From positions 1 through 7,608 of the IMG/VR virus record IMGVR_UViG_2703718816_000006: DNA of 7,608 nucleotides; one strand, given 5' to 3'. The position numbers were made by a program, and so were the translations under genes. This DNA is from a virus (Duplodnaviria > Heunggongvirae > Uroviricota > Caudoviricetes). Each line of letters begins with the position of its first letter. The stretch's first letter is position 1. The notes below the pieces were generated by a model. That model saw only the letters and a list, made by a program, of their open reading frames with translations. It had not been told where the DNA came from and did not search any database. Positions 1 to 7,608 of this stretch are shown here, piece by piece.

Positions 1-1617
1 CAGGGACATCAGGGATACCGCATTGAAGAGCGCCATCAGCGGGTCAATTTTCCCCCGTCCGCTGGCCTGTTTGGTAATAAGGATGGCGTTACCTCTGGGC
101 TCCACCCGGGCATTGCCAACGCACCAGGCCATCAGTGACTGACCACCATGCACCAGCACTCCCTCAGCCAGTTTGCGCTCGGTGGTTTTGATGGCCCCGC
201 CCAGCTTCCAGCCCTGGCTTATCCCCACCACAATTCCTTCGGGGATCCCGGCTTCTGCCAGTGAATCCAGAATCTGCCCCACACCTGACGGGTCAATACC
301 GATATGGTCCAGTAACTCAGCCTCATGAATACGACGCACATACTCCGCCACTTCCGCCGTGTCATCCCCGACCCGACGGACAATCGTCATGTCTCCACTG
401 GCCACAAAATCCTGAAACCGGGATGCTTCACTCTTCCGTCTGACCACCGCGGTTTCATGCGCCCAGGCATGGCCCCAGCCCAGCCATTCGCGGGTTTCCC
501 TGTCACGACCAATCACGTACATTCCCAGCAGATCATCCAGGCCCCCGCCGTCAATCCCCACCGTCACCACATCAGCGCGCTGCAGGATATCGTCCAGGCT
601 GACGCGCCTGCCCTGCTGCTCCCAGAAATCCGCACCCGCCCAGCGGTCAGAACGCAGGGCAAGACCAATTTCCACATTGGCGTGTTTTGACATGAAGCCA
701 CGAAATGCCTCCTCACCAGCCTCCCGGGCTTTACGGTACTCCCGATACAAAAAGGCCTCATCCACCGAATAACCGAGATTCGGGTTAACCATGGCGAGGT
801 TTTCCATCAGCAGGTGCTCACCGCGCTCCACCATCTCCGGCGGATGCTCAAATATCACCGGCAGAAAGTGCGGATCATTAATTTTGCCGTCGCGCACATC
901 CCGGGCGTACTGCAGTTTCTGTCTGAACACCCCGGCGGGCGGCTCATTCGACTGGGTGGTTGTGTACACAACAAACCCTTCCGGGCGGGAGGCAAGGCCG
1001 CCTATGGCTTCACGTAACATGTCCTCCGCTTTGTACTGCTTGCCAAACAGCCACAGTTCATCAATCAGCGTCCCCACGGACTTGATACCGGACACCGTAT
1101 TCGGATCGGCAGCCACCACCTTAAGGGTGGTGTCCGTCACCCTGTGGGTGATGGTCCGGATATGTGTCTGCACCTGACAGAGGTCATCCAGATCATCGTC
1201 CCGTCGTACCATATCCCTGGCAGGGTTGAAGGCGTTAGCCGCCACCTCCACGGTCGGGGCCAGAATGGTGTAGCCCGCCGCCTGCCGCCAGTTCAGTAAC
1301 AGCGCCGTCATCATGATCCCGGCAGCCAGCGTGGACTTGCTGTTTTTTTTGGGTATCAGAATGAACACTTCCTTTATATGGCGTATACCGGTCTGCGCAT
1401 CGTAGGAGCCAAACAGGGCCGCCACCAGGTCAAACACCCACGGTGCACAGGACTCCCCGAACGTCGGGCTGCCCGGTGCATCCACAATCCGCAGTTGTTT
1501 AAAAATCGCCAGGGCATGTGCGGCCTGCTCCGGGTAAATCGGAGCCGGAATAATCGACAGCCCCTTTTTCAGGCGCTCTGCCCAGTCCGGGCAGGCCGTG
1601 CTCCACACAGGTATCAT
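1..1617 (-). CDS. Terminase large subunit (ATPase + nuclease), partial: C-terminus lies beyond the left edge
   Basis: Manual translation from ATG at 1617..1615 gives MIPVWSTACPDWAERLKKG... and stays open to position 1 (end of window reads ...GRGKIDPLMALFNAVSLMSL). Deviant P-loop FILIPKKNSKST, Walker-B-like LIDELW, nuclease-like VGIDGGGLDD. The track omits it because there is no in-window stop. Start overlaps the TerS stop (ATGA). Confidence 0.88.
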   Translation of the reverse strand, partial: MIPVWSTACPDWAERLKKGLSIIPAPIYPEQAAHALAIFKQLRIVDAPGSPTFGESCAPWVFDLVAALFGSYDAQTGIRHIKEVFILIPKKNSKSTLAAGIMMTALLLNWRQAAGYTILAPTVEVAANAFNPARDMVRRDDDLDDLCQVQTHIRTITHRVTDTTLKVVAADPNTVSGIKSVGTLIDELWLFGKQYKAEDMLREAIGGLASRPEGFVVYTTTQSNEPPAGVFRQKLQYARDVRDGKINDPHFLPVIFEHPPEMVERGEHLLMENLAMVNPNLGYSVDEAFLYREYRKAREAGEEAFRGFMSKHANVEIGLALRSDRWAGADFWEQQGRRVSLDDILQRADVVTVGIDGGGLDDLLGMYVIGRDRETREWLGWGHAWAHETAVVRRKSEASRFQDFVASGDMTIVRRVGDDTAEVAEYVRRIHEAELLDHIGIDPSGVGQILDSLAEAGIPEGIVVGISQGWKLGGAIKTTERKLAEGVLVHGGQSLMAWCVGNARVEPRGNAILITKQASGRGKIDPLMALFNAVSLMSL

Positions 1618-2177
1618 CCGTTGCCCTCATTATCATTATTCACCACCAGGCGGGGTGGTGGTGGCACCGCAAAACGGTTAGCCGCTTTTTTCGCCGCGTC
1701 ACCTTTTGCCGATTTTTTACCGGCATCCCCTTTTTTGTGGTGCGTGAACTGCGCCAGCTTATAAGCCACATCCAGCGCCAGCCTGGGGTCGGTATTAATG
1801 TTCTCCACCAGAAGACGCCCCATCGCTTTCACCGGATCGGGAAGACCGTCCTCCATATACTCAATACCAGGAGATATCACCACGGGCGGTGGCATCTCCG
1901 GATTTGTTTCGTCCTGCTGTGGTATTGCAGCCGCCTCACGGCGACGGGGTTTATCCTCCTGCTCTGATTTTTTCTGCCGGTAAACAGGAACCTCATCCAC
2001 CTCCACCGTCTCGCACTGTTTACGGGCTATAAACGCAAGCACCTCCGGATCTTTTGCCAGCTGCGAGCCTTTAACCCTGGCTGTCTTCGCCGAATAACCG
2101 GCGGCAATGGCTGACGCTGTTTTGTTTTTCCCGGACATGAGCGCCAGCGCAAATTTTCGTTTTTGCGTTGTCAGCAC
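1614..2177 (-). CDS. Terminase small subunit
   Basis: 187-aa ORF immediately upstream of and overlapping TerL; basic, Lys/Ala-rich N-terminus typical of DNA-binding small terminases. Start is GTG at 2177 preceded by GGAGGAGG (complement of 2180..2187). Family assignment is from position and composition, not from a search. Confidence 0.75.
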   Translation of the reverse strand: MLTTQKRKFALALMSGKNKTASAIAAGYSAKTARVKGSQLAKDPEVLAFIARKQCETVEVDEVPVYRQKKSEQEDKPRRREAAAIPQQDETNPEMPPPVVISPGIEYMEDGLPDPVKAMGRLLVENINTDPRLALDVAYKLAQFTHHKKGDAGKKSAKGDAAKKAANRFAVPPPPRLVVNNDNEGNG

Positions 2178-2467
2178 AGCCTCCTCCCGGGTCCAGAACG
2201 CACTCAGCCGGGTATGGTTCAGCCCATTTTTCCCGGCGTCTCATGCCGCAAATGTTAACTGCTGCCTGGTTAACATTTGCTGAAAAAGCCTGTTAACATT
2301 TTTTCCACGCAACAAACTGAATAATAAAGATAAAAACCGAAAAAATGCCCGGGCAGCCAGTTAACATGTTAACTGCCCTGAAACGGGAATTTTTTCTCTG
2401 CGTGAGAGGGGGCGCGGTGTCCGGAGCGATCGTTTTTTACGCCGGATGATACCCCCCCCCGGTCGGG
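2178..2467. promoter_or_regulatory. Candidate cos / packaging-initiation region between HNH and TerS
   Basis: 290-bp non-coding gap in the position where HK97-like phages carry cos. Contains a GTTAACAT palindrome cluster (2248..2375), a GC-rich core cgtgagagggggcgcggtgtccggagcgatcg (2401..2432), a T6 run and a C9 homopolymer (2452..2460). Exact cos ends cannot be determined from sequence. Confidence 0.4.
2248..2375. repeat. Cluster of five GTTAACAT octamers (three direct, two inverted) in two palindromes
   Basis: Inverted repeat gcaaatgttaac-N9-gttaacatttgc (2248..2280), a further copy at 2292..2299, and the perfect 18-bp palindrome cagttaacatgttaactg (2358..2375). Confidence 0.7.
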
Positions 2468-2833
2468 TTACAGTCCGATGATGTCGTCCGCTCTGCCACT
2501 ACCTCCGGACACCTCCGGCAGCGTCGGGTCCGGCATACCACCCGCCGCTTCACGAGCAGACTTTTGTCGATGGCATTCGGTACAGAGCGTCCAGAGATTC
2601 GTCTCCTCATTACCACCACCGAACTGAAGTGCAATTCGGTGATCGAGTTCACTGTCACAGAGGTCAACCACACGACCACAGAGACAGCACTGCCCGGCGT
2701 CCCTGAGCCAGATATGACGCTTGAGGGAAACACGTGCACTGCCACTGACACGACGCTGTTCACCATTCAGAATATTCACCCGTCGGGTATTCAGTGTTTT
2801 GATTCTGCTCTGGAGTGTACGAAGCTCAGCCAT
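2468..2833 (-). CDS. HNH endonuclease (terminase-associated type)
   Basis: 121 aa with HNH signature CCLCGRVVDLCDSELDHRIALQFGGGNEETNLWTLCTECH (CxxC...DH...N...CxxCH). ATG at 2833 with GGGGA upstream. Sits directly upstream of cos/TerS as in HK97-like packaging modules. Confidence 0.85.
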   Translation of the reverse strand: MAELRTLQSRIKTLNTRRVNILNGEQRRVSGSARVSLKRHIWLRDAGQCCLCGRVVDLCDSELDHRIALQFGGGNEETNLWTLCTECHRQKSAREAAGGMPDPTLPEVSGGSGRADDIIGL

Positions 2834-2874
2834 GTAAAATCCCCGTCATATGGCAATCAGTAAAGGAAATAAAT

Positions 2875-3045
2875 ATGTCATCGAAAAACCGGACCCGCAG
2901 AACCACAACCCGCAATATCCGTTTCCCCAATCACATGATTGAACAGATCAACATCGCCCTTGAGCATAAAGGGTCCGGTAACTTTTCAGCGTGGGTTATT
3001 GAAGCCTGTCGCCGGAGACTGACAACTGACAAGAAAACATGCTAA
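2875..3045 (+). CDS. Small ribbon-helix-helix (Arc/MetJ/CopG-like) DNA-binding protein, 56 aa
   Basis: ATG at 2875 preceded by AAGGAAAT (SD about 7 nt upstream). MSSKNRTRRTTTRNIRFPNHMIEQINIALEHKGSGNFSAWVIEACRRRL fits the RHH pattern of basic N-terminus, beta-strand, helix, Gly turn, helix. Divergent from HNH (41 bp between starts). Called by motif resemblance only. Confidence 0.55.
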   Translation: MSSKNRTRRTTTRNIRFPNHMIEQINIALEHKGSGNFSAWVIEACRRRLTTDKKTC

Positions 3046-3240
3046 TCGCATAACAAGTTTAAAGAATGAGGCCAGAGGGTCGGACCGTTTCTCTGCCCCT
3101 TTATATAACTAATCTTTAACATTGCCGGCTTTACGATAACTTAAAGTTATTACCTACAGTTATTCCGAATTGAAATAATCCGTCACATAAAATAAAACAA
3201 AAGAATAATAATAATAATCTTCTACCCTTATCCAATCTTT

Positions 3241-3271
3241 ACTGCTGTGCGCCAACACAGCAGTTTTTTTT
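3241..3271 (+). terminator. Rho-independent terminator (plus strand)
   Basis: Stem ctgctgtg (3242..3249) / cacagcag (3256..3263), 6-nt loop, then T8 (3264..3271). Probably ends the RHH transcript and/or unit 1 of the AT-rich island. Confidence 0.6.
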
Positions 3272-3804
3272 GATTATGCTCACATATTTTTTATTCCCCA
3301 GCCGTGATGCACATTACACCTGTTTCTTTTCAATTCAGGCTTTTTCCAGGTATATCTGAATCTCATCCGGTGGCTTCTGCATCGTTATCAGCAAAAAATA
3401 CGGCCGCTACACTGACAAAAGCTCTCGAGAGCAGTTGCACCCATTTTTCGCTTAAAGATTCACTCAGTAAAATAAGGAGAAATTCACAATCATGTTCAGG
3501 CGGCAAACATTATAAAATTAAAACGCCAGACTTGCATAAATAATCCTATGAAGGCTGAACATACTTAAAGCAGTGTGTTATATAAGAGTAAACAACACCC
3601 TATAAAAACCTGCCCCCACACAAGGAGCCACAAAGGCAATTTTATACGCTCCAAACATTATTCAGAAAAGCTTAACAATAAGAAATATTCTTTTCGTCAT
3701 TCATCTCAACTGTCTGATGGACACCGCCCAGTCCCGCAACATGGAGCATAATAGAAGTAAATAACGTATAGTAAGTATTATAATTCAGGCTCGATTATTT
3801 CGAG

Positions 3805-3832
3805 TTGAAAACAACTCTGAAAAAATGATAAT
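3805..3832 (+). promoter_or_regulatory. Candidate sigma70 promoter (TTGAAA - 16 bp - GATAAT)
   Basis: -35 TTGAAA at 3805..3810 and -10 GATAAT at 3827..3832 with TG immediately upstream; palindrome ctcgattatttcgag (3790..3804) abuts the -35. By-eye prediction only. Confidence 0.3.
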
Positions 3833-3838
3833 AAAAAA

Positions 3839-3907
3839 ATAACAACAATACCATTCTCTTCTGCATGTGCCATCACCTGCCGTTGCTACAACCCGGCAGG
3901 TTTTTTT
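3839..3907 (+). ncRNA. Candidate small RNA (~65-70 nt) between predicted promoter and terminator
   Basis: Predicted start about 7 nt after the -10, ending at the 3876..3907 terminator; no ORF with an RBS in the interval. Purely structural inference, no homology known to me. Confidence 0.25.
3876..3907 (+). terminator. Rho-independent terminator (plus strand)
   Basis: Stem cctgccg (3876..3882) / cggcagg (3894..3900) with an 11-nt loop, followed by T7 (3901..3907). No T-run on the other strand, so unidirectional. Confidence 0.6.
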
Positions 3908-4107
3908 ATTGTCTAAACTCCAGATTCTTCCACCATCGCACCGGACTGGCGACTATGAGGGGACAACGCCGCGCTCCGTTAACGCGGTAAACCCCGGTGT
4001 GTATCGTTTTTGATTATCCCCACAAACTCTCGCAGAGGAGTCTCCCTGTCGGGCTGCGGTATCTGTTAATGCGGGAATACGGCGACGATACGGCGCATCA
4101 GCAAAAC

Positions 4108-4575
4108 TTATTTCAGACACTGAGTGCGGATATATTCCTGCGCCCCTTCCAGCTGCTTCTGCATTGTCATCAACCGTTCTCTGAGGATGAAATAATCCCA
4201 TTCAGCGGTGTCTGCCAGTCGGGGGCCGGTTGCATTATCCACGCCGGAGGTGCCGGTGGCTTCACGCACGGTACCGGAGCAGGTGGCGTTGATCCGCAGG
4301 CGCTTACGACCAGCGGCAACATCAGCACGCAGAGTTTCATTTTCAGCTCTCGCATCGGCTAATTCCCTCGAGTATCTGGCATCAAGCGCAGCAACATCAC
4401 CCTGGCGCTGCTGCATATCAGTAATAGTGGCATTCGCCAGTTTCAGCTCACTGACTTTTTTATCGCGCTGCGCTTTGTAGGTGATGGCGTTATCACGGTA
4501 ATGATTCAGCCCCAGACTAAGCACACCACAGGCTACCAGCAGGGCAATGATGACCACGCACAGAACACGGTTCAT
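4108..4575 (-). CDS. Rz: Rz i-spanin (inner-membrane spanin subunit)
   Basis: 155 aa from ATG at 4575: [40 protein letters not shown]...[20 protein letters not shown]-terminal TM helix plus coiled-coil periplasmic domain, closely resembling lambda Rz as I recall it. The track ORF extends 28 codons further upstream, judged non-coding. Confidence 0.9.
4170..4355 (-). CDS. Rz1: Rz1 o-spanin lipoprotein, embedded in Rz in an alternative frame
   Basis: 61 aa [61 protein letters not shown]: lipobox LVVSAC and Pro-rich mature region, closely resembling lambda Rz1. Lies entirely inside Rz. Confidence 0.85.
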
Positions 4576-4674
4576 ATCACCACCAACGGATTGCCCAGAC
4601 CAGAACAGCAATGGCCACAATACGAATGGAAAATGCCATTGCCCGAATAAATTCAGCACTCATCTTTTTAAAGT

Positions 4675-4857
4675 TCACGATTTCAGCGCAATGACCAGTT
4701 TTGCCAGCCCATACAGCATCGGAGACACAGCGATACCAACCGCCACCCACTTAATAGCAAAAGCCAGCGCTCTGCTGATGTCATCAGTTACTGGCGCTTT
4801 CAGTTCAAGGCCGTTTTTCATAGTCAACCTCAACAGAATTCGTTTATACTTTTCCAT
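4675..4857 (-). CDS. Hypothetical small membrane protein (60 aa; alternative start at 4821 gives 48 aa)
   Basis: ATG at 4857 preceded by AGGGAG; alternative ATG at 4821 preceded by GAGG. One C-terminal hydrophobic helix ALAFAIKWVAVGIAVSPMLYGLAKLVIAL. Sits between endolysin and Rz; no family recognised. Confidence 0.4.
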   Translation of the reverse strand: MEKYKRILLRLTMKNGLELKAPVTDDISRALAFAIKWVAVGIAVSPMLYGLAKLVIALKS

Positions 4858-4894
4858 GTTCTCCCTTGCCTTATCCAAGGTCAGAAACACAAAA

Positions 4895-4924
4895 CCCCGC
4901 TTGCTGCCAACAAACGGGGTTTTT
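4895..4924. terminator. Hairpin with T-runs on both sides (bidirectional terminator-like)
   Basis: Stem ccccgcttg (4895..4903) / caaacgggg (4911..4919), 8 of 9 bp, 7-nt loop, then T5 on the plus strand and TTTTGTGTT on the minus strand. Between the endolysin stop and the small membrane gene. Confidence 0.4.
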
Positions 4925-5013
4925 ACTTTTATTCACTTAGGTTTTGCCAGTTCGCAGGATTTCGTGTTATCCGCCCGCGTTGGCCAACGTCATTTTTCAG
5001 CAAAATATTCTGC

Positions 5014-5547
5014 TTATCTGTCGACTCCCCAGCACGCCAGCGCACTCTCCTGGTCGCGACGGGATACCTGACCGTAGCAATTATTTGAGCGAATACGGCA
5101 GTCTCTGCCACCGTCCTTAATCCACCAGCGAATCGCTTCACACGCTCCCCTGCGATCGCCTGCATTAATTCGTTTATAAAACGTCGACGGGAAACACTTA
5201 CCGGGGCCAATGTTGTACGGACAGAATGACGCGATCCCCGCTTTCTGGGGTTCGCTCAATGGCACTTTGATGTTTTTCTCCACCCATGCCAGCGCCTTAT
5301 CACGCTCAATGGCGTTAACCCGGTCGCATTTTCCCTTCGACAGCTTCATGCCAGGAATAACAGGCTTACCATCCACCCGGGTGGCTCCACGGCAGATGGT
5401 CCAGATCCCCGCACCATCACGGTATGCCGTGGTGTGGTTACCTTCTTTTTCGTCAAGAAACTGGTCGAGGATTTCAGGCGCAGACGCCCCTGCACCAATC
5501 AGCGCCAGAACGGCAGCCGACAGGCCGTATCGGATTTTTGCGTTCAT
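5014..5547 (-). CDS. R: SAR endolysin (T4-lysozyme-like / GH24 muramidase with signal-anchor-release N-terminus)
   Basis: 177 aa. Catalytic motif E-x8-D-x5-T in DEKEGNHTTAYRDGAGIWTICRGAT; N-terminus MNAKIRYGLSAAVLALIGAGASA is a Gly/Ala-rich weakly hydrophobic helix typical of SAR domains. No strong SD upstream of the ATG at 5547. Confidence 0.85.
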   Translation of the reverse strand: MNAKIRYGLSAAVLALIGAGASAPEILDQFLDEKEGNHTTAYRDGAGIWTICRGATRVDGKPVIPGMKLSKGKCDRVNAIERDKALAWVEKNIKVPLSEPQKAGIASFCPYNIGPGKCFPSTFYKRINAGDRRGACEAIRWWIKDGGRDCRIRSNNCYGQVSRRDQESALACWGVDR

Positions 5548-5675
5548 GGATATTTATCAGGATTTATCGGTTCCGGCCCCCTGGATATGTTAAGTCTTCA
5601 GCCTGCCAGTGGTGGGCACTGGCGTTTTATCTGCTGGCTGAAAATATATCTGACAATTCCAGTCGAGGATTAACC

Positions 5676-5990
5676 ATGCATAACCATCAACATAATTATG
5701 ATTTATACCTGCAAGCCATAAATGAGCGGGTAAAATCGGAATGCCTTTTACTCCTCCTGCAAGAACACGAAGCAGTAAAGGCCATTCAGGCTGAACCGTA
5801 TGGAGCTCTCACTACTGCAACTCTCAGTATTATATCCGGAGCATTAACACCAACCTTGCTCCTTCGCCTGAAAGACAATATAGATGACTGGTTAAACGAA
5901 GAATTAAACTACCTTGAATGTGAGTGGGATCATCATTACGCCAAATCACAAAAAGAACGCATCTTCCGTCGATTATCCGGCAACAGATAA
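5676..5990 (+). CDS. Hypothetical protein, 104 aa, convergent with the 213-aa gene
   Basis: ATG at 5676 preceded by GAGGA (5665..5669). Protein-like composition, no TM segment, AT-richer than the flanking phage genes. The track ORF 5424..5990 extends upstream into the endolysin gene on the opposite strand; the internal start is preferred. No family recognised. Confidence 0.45.
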   Translation: MHNHQHNYDLYLQAINERVKSECLLLLLQEHEAVKAIQAEPYGALTTATLSIISGALTPTLLLRLKDNIDDWLNEELNYLECEWDHHYAKSQKERIFRRLSGNR

Positions 5991-5999
5991 CGAGCCAGC

Positions 6000-6641
6000 T
6001 TATATACGTCCTTTAAGATAAGTCAGTCCGGGATGAAACCAGTAAGCCGGCACTTTTTTAAAGGGCGGATTATCAAAATCACGAAGAAGAGCCTCCCGCA
6101 CAACTGCATCCTTGTCCGCACCACTGGCCAGCGCTTCAATCTCAGCAGCTACCTGCAGATATCCCATGCAACGACCAATGCGCTGCATCAGCCCCTGCTT
6201 TTTATTGTTCTTCAGGTAATCAATGGCAAATTCAGTGAGCGCCTCACTGTGCTGGTGCGATGCCGGTGTTACTTTCCCATCTTCACGGATCGTGATATTC
6301 CAGTCATCGCTGCTCACAATAAAAGATGGCCGATTACACTCCCATTCCTGGTCTTTATCCGGTGCAGACGCAATAAAATAACGTTTATTGCCTTCCTCTC
6401 CGGCACTTTTAACCGTAATGGAGTACTTTTCTGACAATGCGGTCGGTAAAAACTTTTCCTGCAAAATATTCGCAAAGGTCCTGCGAGCAATTTTGATGCA
6501 ATCATCGTAAAACGCCGCAAACTGCTCATCGCGGCGTTTTTTTGCATCTTCAGAAGGCATCAGCGCCGACAGTTTTTTATTCAGTTCAGCAATTTCATTT
6601 TCCAGACGACTTATGCGCCGATTCATTTCTTCATGCTTCAT
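6000..6641 (-). CDS. Hypothetical protein, 213 aa, translationally coupled to the holin
   Basis: ATG at 6641 lies 3 nt after the holin stop (TAG at 6647..6645) with GGGGAGAG inside the holin 3' end. N-terminal coiled-coil-like segment RRISRLENEIAELNKKLSAL, soluble, no motif I recognise. Inserted where phage-21-type cassettes have holin and endolysin adjacent. Confidence 0.6.
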   Translation of the reverse strand: MKHEEMNRRISRLENEIAELNKKLSALMPSEDAKKRRDEQFAAFYDDCIKIARRTFANILQEKFLPTALSEKYSITVKSAGEEGNKRYFIASAPDKDQEWECNRPSFIVSSDDWNITIREDGKVTPASHQHSEALTEFAIDYLKNNKKQGLMQRIGRCMGYLQVAAEIEALASGADKDAVVREALLRDFDNPPFKKVPAYWFHPGLTYLKGRI

Positions 6642-6644
6642 TAT

Positions 6645-6860
6645 CTACTCTCCCCGGGCCGCCTTACGCCGGTCTTCTTTAATTTTGAAATACAGGTTAG
6701 TCAGATACGTCAGCAGACCAAACAGCAGACTCCCCAGCACGCCTATTGCCGCCCACTGAGACGGGGAAACCCTGTCCAGCAGCTGCAGGAACCAGTAGCC
6801 CGTCCCCACCGCTGACGTGGTGTATGACACACCTGTTGTGATTTTTTCCATCTGGTACAT
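6645..6860 (-). CDS. S: Class II holin of the phage 21 S21 pinholin type, with dual-start motif
   Basis: 71 aa [71 protein letters not shown]: two TM segments, charged C-terminus, Met1/Met4 dual start (antiholin/holin). Closely resembles S21 as I recall it; GGGAGA upstream. Confidence 0.88.
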
Positions 6861-6935
6861 ATCCCGTCTCCCGCAATCCGGAAGCTCACAACAACAAGAG
6901 GGGCATCAGCTCACACCGACAGCCCCTGCGCATGG

Positions 6936-7205
6936 TTACATCATCATTTCGCCGTCAGGCTGAGGCTCACTGCCACCATCAGGCTGAGACACGACACCAT
7001 CTGAAACAGCACTGTCACCCGCACCGTCTTCAGGCCCGGGAGCAGCCGTTACCCCCAGCAGTTCATCCAGAATGGCATCCACTTCAGCATCAAGACGCGC
7101 CTCAAGATTCTGGCGGAGTTGCTGTTTCAGTACGCTTCTGACTTCTTCAGAGCGCAGGACTTCCTTCACTGCTTCAGCAGTGACCAGCGGTTTTATTTCT
7201 GACAT
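6936..7205 (-). CDS. Hypothetical acidic protein, 89 aa
   Basis: ATG at 7205 preceded by a weak SD (GAGAAAATACC). MSEIKPLVTAEAVKEVLRSEEVRSVLKQQLRQNLEARLDAEVDAILDELLG... then an acidic Gly/Pro/Asp-rich tail. The track ORF 6936..7319 is an upstream extension overlapping the next gene and is rejected. No family recognised. Confidence 0.4.
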   Translation of the reverse strand: MSEIKPLVTAEAVKEVLRSEEVRSVLKQQLRQNLEARLDAEVDAILDELLGVTAAPGPEDGAGDSAVSDGVVSQPDGGSEPQPDGEMMM

Positions 7206-7242
7206 GGTATTTTCTCGTTGAAAGGTGTTGTTAAGAAAGTTG

Positions 7243-7425
7243 CTACGGAATGAGAGGCTCTTCGGGTTTTGTTCCGGCTGACTGACTGGCGCTGATTTTC
7301 TCAGCGGCCCTTTTGTCAATCTGTCTGCGCCAGAAATCTCTCACGACTCTGTACCCACCAGAAAGAAGATACAGCACACAAACTGCTGTACAGAAATACA
7401 ATAAAATAAGCTGTATAAATGTCAT
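7243..7425 (-). CDS. Hypothetical small membrane protein, 60 aa
   Basis: ATG at 7425 preceded by GGAG (spacing about 7). N-terminal TM helix FIQLILLYFCTAVCVLYLL followed by a basic tail. Upstream of the holin in the same orientation. Confidence 0.45.
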   Translation of the reverse strand: MTFIQLILLYFCTAVCVLYLLSGGYRVVRDFWRRQIDKRAAEKISASQSAGTKPEEPLIP

Positions 7426-7519
7426 TATTCATCTCCATTATTGACATGGTTAATGCCTGCCAGTAAAAAACTCCTGCATTTTTTGCTCAGCATATTTTTG
7501 CTAAGGATGTAGCGACCTC

Positions 7520-7568
7520 TGCCGCCGGTTCTGGCTCCTTGTTTTCCCTGCCCCGGCGGCATTTTTTT
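7520..7568 (+). terminator. Terminator-like hairpin plus T7 on the plus strand
   Basis: 9-bp GC-rich stem tgccgccgg (7520..7528) / ccggcggca (7553..7561) with a long 24-nt loop, then T7 (7562..7568). No T-run on the minus strand. Function unclear; may belong to the late promoter/regulatory region. Confidence 0.3.
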
Positions 7569-7608
7569 ATCCTGCTTACGCGTTATTCACTTCCACTGTT
7601 ATACTTTC

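Follow-up and report, generated by a model that had tools for sequence, protein, structure and literature searches.

Prophages of pathogenic Escherichia coli carry a variety of small RNA (sRNA) genes, of which the closest to the element considered here is HnrS, the Hha-negative regulatory sRNA, a name under which Poudyal et al. (PLoS Pathog 2026, PMC13502914; bioRxiv 10.1101/2025.11.27.690950) renamed, and directly identified, the RNAs previously called EcOnc10, EcOnc11 and EcOnc12. HnrS is encoded by prophages Sp9, Sp10 and Sp12 of O157:H7 Sakai, in a single copy per prophage, as a primary transcript of 66 nt, which has a transcription start of its own and an intrinsic terminator; it associates with Hfq and RNase E, accumulates in early stationary phase and lowers hha approximately 10-fold by pairing at the ribosome-binding site, as confirmed by compensatory mutations (PMC13502914). 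Its influence on motility, type III secretion and Hha-regulated genes is Hha-dependent (PMC13502914). Up to nine copies per genome have been reported, with dosage thought to be relevant, and hnrS is enriched in the LEE-positive group (LEE, locus of enterocyte effacement). The RNA also perfectly complements the final 15 nt of mazF, its most abundant partner in crosslinking, ligation and sequencing of hybrids (CLASH), with no detectable consequence (PMC13502914); as no function was found for it, this complementarity probably does not define the family. Here, we analysed a 7,608-nt stretch of a Caudoviricetes record (IMGVR_UViG_2703718816_000006, positions 1 to 7,608; the window), in which an AT-rich island at 3046-3950 is probably a non-coding moron with two independently transcribed HnrS-type sRNA genes, of which the first (unit 1) would repress hha and the second (unit 2) would act on other targets.

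Other prophage-borne elements share parts of this description. AgvB and AsxR (RF02702 and RF02703; Tree et al. 2014) are likewise short Hfq-binding RNAs (51-60 nt) encoded at moron sites of lambdoid prophages, convergent to the late operon, in families whose 3' part is conserved and whose ARN-rich 5' part varies, but they lie downstream of PR'/stx rather than between Rz and ylcI, and sponge the host sRNAs GcvB and FnrS rather than block the ribosome-binding site of an mRNA. Neither model matched 3040-3960 at E-values up to 10, although the same models pick up AgvB in Sakai and, beyond the window, in the present prophage, and Rfam 15 gave no match at threshold for either unit, the best being CyaR (19 bits) and manA-II (19 bits), both well under their gathering scores. 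The Pas sRNAs, Esr41 and STnc100 of enteropathogenic and enterohaemorrhagic E. coli are also multicopy, pathotype-restricted, prophage-borne and Hfq-associated, with sequence variants distinguished by their seed or 5' end; they are situated near Q, holin/lysozyme or esterase genes, however, not at Rz/ylcI. Map position sets Pas apart, and no Rfam match to Esr41 or STnc100 was obtained for either unit. The lambda bor and lom morons resemble the island as autonomous promoter-terminator cassettes that are AT-rich relative to their neighbours, directed against the late operon and placed in the variable slot after Rz, but the cargo of the island is non-coding RNA, with no protein or conserved open reading frame (ORF).

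Two collinear units in an AT-rich island

The island comprises the following features, given by position in the window and strand.

3160-3198 (+): promoter of unit 1, assigned by homology; box TTATTCCGAA, -35 TTGAAA (3170-3175), 17-nt spacer, -10 TAAAAC (3193-3198)
3205-3271 (+): predicted sRNA of unit 1, ~67 nt, an HnrS variant by homology to the 66-nt Sakai HnrS
3272-3794 (no strand): AT-rich spacer of ~520 bp with no conserved ORF, from alignment to a related island (locus L003) and from ORF, Pfam and Rfam checks
3795-3832 (+): promoter of unit 2, found by scan with 10 of 12 consensus matches; box TTATTTCGAG, -35 TTGAAA (3805-3810), 16-nt spacer, -10 GATAAT (3827-3832)
3839-3907 (+): predicted sRNA of unit 2, ~69 nt, a putative HnrS paralogue with its start placed 7 nt after the -10

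The GC content of 3101-3900 is 0.30-0.42, and that of the flanking genes 0.46-0.63. The window holds exactly two copies of a 16-nt box, TTATTYCGARTTGAAA (3160-3175 and 3795-3810, each on the plus strand), to which none of 200 shuffles gave a match. From box to U-run, the two units (~127 nt each) align collinearly with a local score of 37 (dinucleotide shuffles, 16.7 +/- 2.7) and a global z score of 6.9, the observed score being reached by none of 2000 shuffles, while alignments of unit 1 with segments of the spacer scored no better than shuffles. A sequence-only reading of this stretch had proposed an AT-rich, non-coding island at 3046-3950 that lacked any convincing ORF and held two similarly laid-out promoter-to-terminator units, and each of these proposals stood: the drop in GC was confirmed, no conserved ORF or Pfam family was found, and the twofold box is accompanied by collinear similarity far above chance.

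Among 5426 complete E. coli genomes, four carried the exact island at ≥98.7% identity and 20 more carried a whole island of 73% identity with both units (L003 is its representative), giving the two-unit layout in 24 genomes overall. The L003-type island was also found in approximately 10 IMG/VR prophage contigs, with boxes ~650 bp apart. Aligned to L003, the first ~75 nt of the spacer (3272-3345) were 80-92% identical and the rest 37-77%, with indels of 1, 2, 7 and 10 nt, and the ORFs of the two island versions were entirely different.

These comparisons bear on the possibility that the island is the remnant of a decayed, bor-like protein-coding moron whose flanking terminators survive as the hairpins, which the sequence-only reading had named as its refuting case. 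Such an origin would suit the position, which is analogous to that of lambda bor and is occupied in other prophages by Rha/antirepressor or DNA methyltransferase genes, as well as the presence of a 79-aa ORF (3304-3543) and the homology of the spacer between the two island versions. We regard it as very improbable, as the ORF is unconserved, is broken by 1-2-nt indels in the 73%-identical island, is equalled or exceeded in length in 11% of shuffles and belongs to no Pfam family, whilst the best-conserved parts of the island are the two units rather than the middle, and unit 1 has a validated sRNA as its homologue. The 79-, 58-, 47- and 82-aa ORFs were all rejected as protein-coding genes on the basis of conservation, shuffle lengths and Pfam, no ORF is shared by the two island versions, and the island held no conserved ORF with a translation signal between a promoter and terminator of its own, as a bor-like moron would. 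The spacer (3272-3794), which matched no Pfam or Rfam family, is as far as can be told non-coding.

The terminators provide a further comparison between the units. In the family alignment (A2), which comprises 11 distinct sequences from few lineages, unit-1- and unit-2-type terminators occupied identical columns in the same register; 86% of cells in the helix were paired, and slid registers were all far worse. Two compensatory pairs separate the unit-1 from the unit-2 type (C-G to A-U and C-G to U-A).

Three minor observations concern the spacer. Just 3' of terminator 1, the stretch at 3272-3345 is as conserved as the sRNA (80-92%, compared to 73% island-wide), and no ORF, promoter or structure accounting for this was found there. 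A direct repeat of 89% identity, TTTTTGATTATGCTCACA at 3267-3284 and TTTTTGATTATCCCCACA at 4007-4024, has one copy directly after terminator 1 and the other in the conserved flank preceding Rz, and may be the trace of an older duplication or a recombination junction. A minus-strand terminator-like site at 3610-3639 was rejected, as the part of the spacer around it is rich in indels and the least conserved (37% identity).

Unit 1 and the hha seed

The HnrS sequence was taken from three copies in the Sakai chromosome.

NC_002695.2 1946946-1947011 (-): Sp10 copy
NC_002695.2 1779648-1779713 (-): Sp9 copy
NC_002695.2 2234370-2234435 (+): Sp12 copy

These copies are identical, each lying between Rz and a ylcI-like gene, and their prophages and strands are those of EcOnc11, EcOnc12 and EcOnc10, Hfq peaks from crosslinking and analysis of cDNA with near-identical peak areas (Tree et al. 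2014 Table S2, PMC4104026). The coordinates of that table refer to an older Sakai record, offset by ~+126 to +137 nt (from AgvB1, located through its Rfam model, and the three hnrS copies); after correction the peaks fall on the Sakai units, whereas at face value EcOnc11 lies downstream of the unit. Beyond coordinates, the Sakai unit is HnrS at the sequence level because both published complementarities are present: CUACCCAAUCAGUAC is exactly complementary to GTACTGATTGGGTAG at the mazF 3' end, and CUUCUACCC(A) complements (U)GGGUAGAAG directly 5' of the hha AUG (AGAAG ribosome-binding site).

Unit 1 shares with Sakai HnrS its locus, promoter box and geometry, A-rich 5' end, CUUCUACCC seed, terminator architecture and approximate length, with 81% identity over 122 nt, promoter included. 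Its box is invariant in 11 of 11 aligned family members and its geometry is that of the Sakai hnrS promoter (TTGAAA-17-TAAAAA), from which it differs in the -10 (TAAAAC); the -10 and start site were assigned by homology, and the 5' end was set by alignment to the published 66-nt RNA. The predicted RNA begins with (AAU)5 ARN repeats (3204-3218), followed by the seed (3219-3227), a linker that differs from that of Sakai and a terminator with a 9-bp stem (3241-3249/3256-3264), in which the T at 3264 both closes the stem and, with seven further T to 3271, forms an 8-T run. The terminator was found by scan and the whole RNA folds at -14.0 kcal/mol (z = -5.4), with a U-A pair in the stem where the Sakai terminator has a U-G wobble.

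The seed of unit 1 pairs with GGGUAGAAG at hha -11..-3, just 5' of the AUG. With the single-stranded 5' part of the RNA, the predicted duplex with hha -35..+20 was -15.6 kcal/mol for unit 1 and -16.8 kcal/mol for Sakai HnrS, compared to -9.3 +/- 2.5 kcal/mol for shuffles, of which 1.2% were as good. The 5' region of hha was present in 5424 of the 5426 genomes and at least 99% identical in 5308. The mazF complementarity has in contrast been lost from unit 1: Sakai HnrS forms 15 contiguous pairs (-27.1 kcal/mol), whilst unit 1 and unit 2 reach only -12.0 and -9.2 kcal/mol. Given the unchanged seed, the predicted pairing and a core, nearly invariant target in E. coli, we conclude that unit 1 is an HnrS allele and has very probably kept the repression of hha.

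The linker specific to the window (CCUUAUCCAA) is also complementary to UUGGAUAAGG within 4858-4897 (-), ~10 nt 5' of the ribosome-binding site of a small ORF (4675-4856); at -20 kcal/mol, this duplex is about what chance would give as the best of 5400 scanned windows.

Unit 2 as a diverged paralogue

The predicted RNA of unit 2 has a CA/A-rich 5' end (AUAACAACAAUACC), a single-stranded body (AUUCUCUUCUGCAUGUGCCAU, 3853-3873) and a terminator at 3875-3901 with its U-run at 3901-3907, which a simple scan missed because its loop exceeds 8 nt. In agreement with the sequence-only reading, unit 2 has a good promoter with a 16-bp spacer (TTGAAA-16-GATAAT, 10 of 12 matches) and unit 1 the weaker -10 (TAAAAC compared to GATAAT), and the "tcttc segment" noted in that reading corresponds to the seed. 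The transcript length required revision, as the ~95 nt given there is the distance from the -35 to the terminator end and the predicted transcripts are ~67-69 nt.

Both predicted RNAs (67 and 69 nt) have the form of the HnrS family, that is, ~66 nt with a terminal hairpin and U-run, and both units occupy its position between Rz and the ylcI-like gene/terminase, opposite the late operon. The hha seed is present in unit 1 and absent from unit 2, which shares with it only CUUCU and differs from Sakai HnrS in its extended seed and terminator sequence, with no convincing hha pairing. Where Sakai has one copy per prophage, the window adds a diverged unit ~635 bp downstream. As its homology to Sakai hnrS is detectable only as a collinear alignment with unit 1 (z ~7), unit 2 is a paralogue rather than an allele.

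Unit-1-type sequences occurred in 568 of the 5426 genomes, with up to five copies each, and unit-2-type sequences in 135. The latter include a copy alone beside Rz in porcine and wild-boar O139:H1 strains (locus L009) and a unit-2-like paralogue outside any late operon (L010 1454-1570 and L011 1443-1560) in strains including O113:H21 Shiga toxin-producing E. coli (STEC). This last type has the same promoter box, a -10 of GATAAA, the body UCUCUUCUGGAUGUGCCAU and its own terminator, lies ~380 nt 5' of the gene for an AraC-family regulator, with a DUF1187 gene and remnants of IS66 alongside, and gave no Rfam match.

Across three independent lineages (the window, L003 and the AraC-island copies L010/L011), TTGAA(A/T) and GATAA(T/A) were kept at 15-16-nt spacing around spacers of unrelated sequence, the expected signature of a working sigma-70 promoter. 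The first ~15 nt of the predicted RNA varied between lineages, yet remained A- or CA-rich, and the body UUCUCUUCUG(C/G)AUGUGCCAU was essentially invariant, island copies included. Relative to the L003 version, body and terminator were 86% identical and the promoter spacer 66%. With unit 1 as an HnrS homologue and the promoter, seed and terminator of unit 2 kept in three lineages, the earlier proposal of two paralogous small transcription units, and with it that of an sRNA pair, is supported. Unit 2 is most likely a functional paralogue with targets other than hha, judging from this pattern of conservation.

Several points nonetheless count against two working sRNA genes. The covariation evidence is thin, because the alignment holds only 11 distinct sequences from few lineages; the -10 of unit 1 (TAAAAC) is poor; and the predicted transcript 5' ends of both units were placed only from homology and the geometry of the promoters. 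Unit 2 folds at -13.6 kcal/mol, with a z score of only -1.7 relative to shuffles, and its duplex with hha (-11.3 kcal/mol, seven pairs including G-U) has a z score of -0.3, with 34% of shuffles as good. Since this pairing is indistinguishable from shuffles, the case for a function of unit 2 is drawn from conservation only.

It could accordingly be argued that unit 1 alone works, unit 2 being either a duplicate in decay or no more than a residual promoter and terminator that regulate nothing. The chance-level hha pairing and weak fold score of unit 2 would fit, as would its lower frequency (135 compared to 568 genomes) and the single copy per prophage described for HnrS (PMC13502914). Decay would not, however, be expected to keep both hexamers and a 15-16-nt spacing across a diverged spacer, which is the pattern of a working gene, nor to leave a 20-nt single-stranded body identical between versions of a 73%-identical island and a terminator maintained through compensatory changes. 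Unit 2 is also retained as a lone copy beside Rz (L009) and within a distinct genomic island (L010/L011). We therefore consider a non-functional unit 2 unlikely and favour two functional units.

As to what unit 2 might bind, its CA-rich 5' end gave a predicted duplex of -20.8 kcal/mol with GcvB R1, compared to -24.6 kcal/mol for AgvB, but composition-matched shuffles were nearly as good for both, so that an AgvB-like titration of GcvB is only a lead. Association with Hfq is predicted for both window RNAs from their ARN repeats (AAC AAC AAU in unit 2, (AAU)5 in unit 1) and the 3' U-tail visible in each, binding having been measured for the Sakai allele.

In the mechanism that we propose, both promoters would fire in a lysogen against a silent late operon, the two units being expressible there because they lie opposite to it. 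From a sigma-70-type promoter on the shared ATTYCGARTTGAAA box, each would produce a ~67-69-nt RNA with an ARN-repeat 5' end for the Hfq distal face, a single-stranded UCUUCU-containing seed and a terminator U-tail for the Hfq proximal face, and Hfq would stabilize each RNA through the repeats and the tail. The seed of unit 1 would cover the hha Shine-Dalgarno sequence and block translation, lowering the H-NS co-silencer Hha and weakening Hha/H-NS silencing of horizontally acquired loci, whilst unit 2 would act on other RNAs through its own seed. Expression and activity of both window alleles are here deduced from homology, position, conservation, and predicted folds and pairing.

The Sakai locus itself shows affinity to both units. 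The Sp10 copy (L005 1136-1211) agrees with unit 2 (3875-3930) and not with unit 1 (3241-3271) in its 3' terminator stem half (CGGCAG) and throughout its downstream flank, and the single-unit O157 locus looks like a recombinant of units 1 and 2 minus the spacer, or the reverse. A wider reading, which we hold tentatively and with some doubt, is that unit 2 represents an undescribed sRNA lineage, split from HnrS, with non-hha targets and circulating in its own right, and that the two-unit island was the ancestor or donor. This lineage, with the HnrS box and UCUUCU core retained, a novel seed of 20 nt (UUCUCUUCUGCAUGUGCCAU) and a 5' end rich in CA, might also titrate GcvB, and would occur both beside Rz and in the non-prophage AraC island, LEE-negative STEC and porcine strains included. 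The O157:H7 hnrS would then be unit 1 up to the terminator loop and unit 2 from the 3' stem half onwards, a recombinant origin that would explain the Sakai U-G wobble and the unit-2-like downstream flank.

The kind of element is already known, having been detected in 2014 and characterized in 2025-26, and the tandem paralogue is a modest novelty; what is new is an hha-seed allele without the mazF site, the tandem two-unit island and the unit-2 lineage. There is a modest chance that unit 2 deserves treatment as a new variant. The known HnrS mechanism is unchanged, but the family extends beyond the one 100%-identical allele that has been studied, some prophages holding two members in tandem and a sister lineage with a different seed occurring in strains outside the LEE-positive group. 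Prevalence counts obtained by matching to the Sakai sequence are consequently probably under-counts. Alleles with the hha seed but no mazF complementarity fit the report of no detectable mazF function, and together these variants form a natural allelic series by which the hha, mazF and other target sets could be told apart.

Prophage setting and distribution

The window corresponds to the late region of a lambdoid E. coli prophage that resembles Stx phages. It shares 99.8% identity with a prophage from two Okinawa bovine isolates, and its flanking genes are 91-95% identical to those of many Stx-converting phages. The annotation of the 99.8%-identical prophage places holin, lysozyme, Rz, HNH endonuclease and the small and large terminase subunits on the minus strand. 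The immediate surroundings of the island are as follows.

2875-3045 (+): left flank, a 56-aa DUF3950 (YlcI/YnfO) gene (Pfam PF13132, E 6e-20; RefSeq annotation of the 99.8%-identical prophage)
3908-4107 (no strand): conserved right flank from unit 2 to the Rz stop codon, from comparison of the window, L002/L005 (Sakai), L003 and L009
4108-4575 (-): right flank, the Rz spanin gene, last of the lysis cassette (Pfam Phage_lysis, E 2e-48; annotation)

The left-hand gene had been read from the sequence as a ribbon-helix-helix (RHH) gene; its place and plus strand hold, whilst Pfam and RefSeq identify it as DUF3950/YlcI-YnfO. It shares the strand of both sRNA units, and no terminator is present between it and unit 1. 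The sequence of the 3908-4107 flank recurs 3' of the single hnrS copy in O157:H7.

As late transcription crosses the island in antisense to both units, they could act mainly in cis, antisense or convergent to the Q-antiterminated minus-strand late transcript, tuning the HNH/terminase genes or guarding the lysogen against leakage of late transcription. Late read-through RNA is complementary to both RNAs over their full length, their self-antisense sites giving the top duplexes (-39 and -46 kcal/mol) of a prophage scan, and the location between lysis and packaging genes was fixed in every locus examined. Apart from these sites, the scan of 13.6 kb of prophage with both seeds returned nothing above expectation for the best of ~5400 windows. 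We consider a main role in cis improbable, because regulation of hha in trans is proven for the Sakai allele by compensatory mutations, with Hha-dependent phenotypes (PMC13502914), and a unit-2-type copy exists in a non-prophage island, away from any late operon; a short seed and terminator make up the conserved portion, moreover, as is typical for Hfq sRNAs that act in trans. An effect in cis could coexist with the trans role that we favour.

A short form of the locus, holding one unit between the DUF3950 gene and Rz, was found in O157:H7, O111, O121, O145 and other STEC. Amongst 50,697 phage records, megablast gave no match to the two-unit island, and a search in distant mode recovered the single-unit version only, in 71 deposited genomes, all of Stx-type phages and none with an RNA annotated at the unit. 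Neither unit was annotated in the RefSeq/GenBank records examined. Outside E. coli, a pattern scan of GTDB (one genome per species) gave one chance match, in a GC-rich contig of a metagenome-assembled genome, and no sign of the family.

Further candidate RNA features were observed in the same prophage. Approximately 2 kb past the right end of the window (L001 12654-12922), an AgvB-family gene (56.6 bits, gathering score 56) adjoins STnc100 (176.7 bits), the pair lying upstream of three tRNA genes; beside the two units, these bring the prophage to at least four sRNA genes. Another feature, close to the right-hand end of the window at 7485-7570 (+), is a GC-rich hairpin with a U-run after it, convergent with the late operon (-27.2 kcal/mol, z = -2.4); it gave a weak Esr41-like Rfam match (23 bits, gathering score 102) and may be another prophage sRNA or a terminator. 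Inside the lysis cassette, a segment at 4859-4933 (+) made up of an A-run, then a hairpin (AAAACCCCG...CGGGGTTTTT), then a T-run, with a weak match to the rimP leader (25.6 bits, gathering score 47), looks like a bidirectional terminator. Finally, the intergenic region between the HNH endonuclease and small terminase subunit genes (2178-2467) contains a run of nine C (2452-2460) and is presumably the cos region, given the HK97-type arrangement of HNH and terminase genes.

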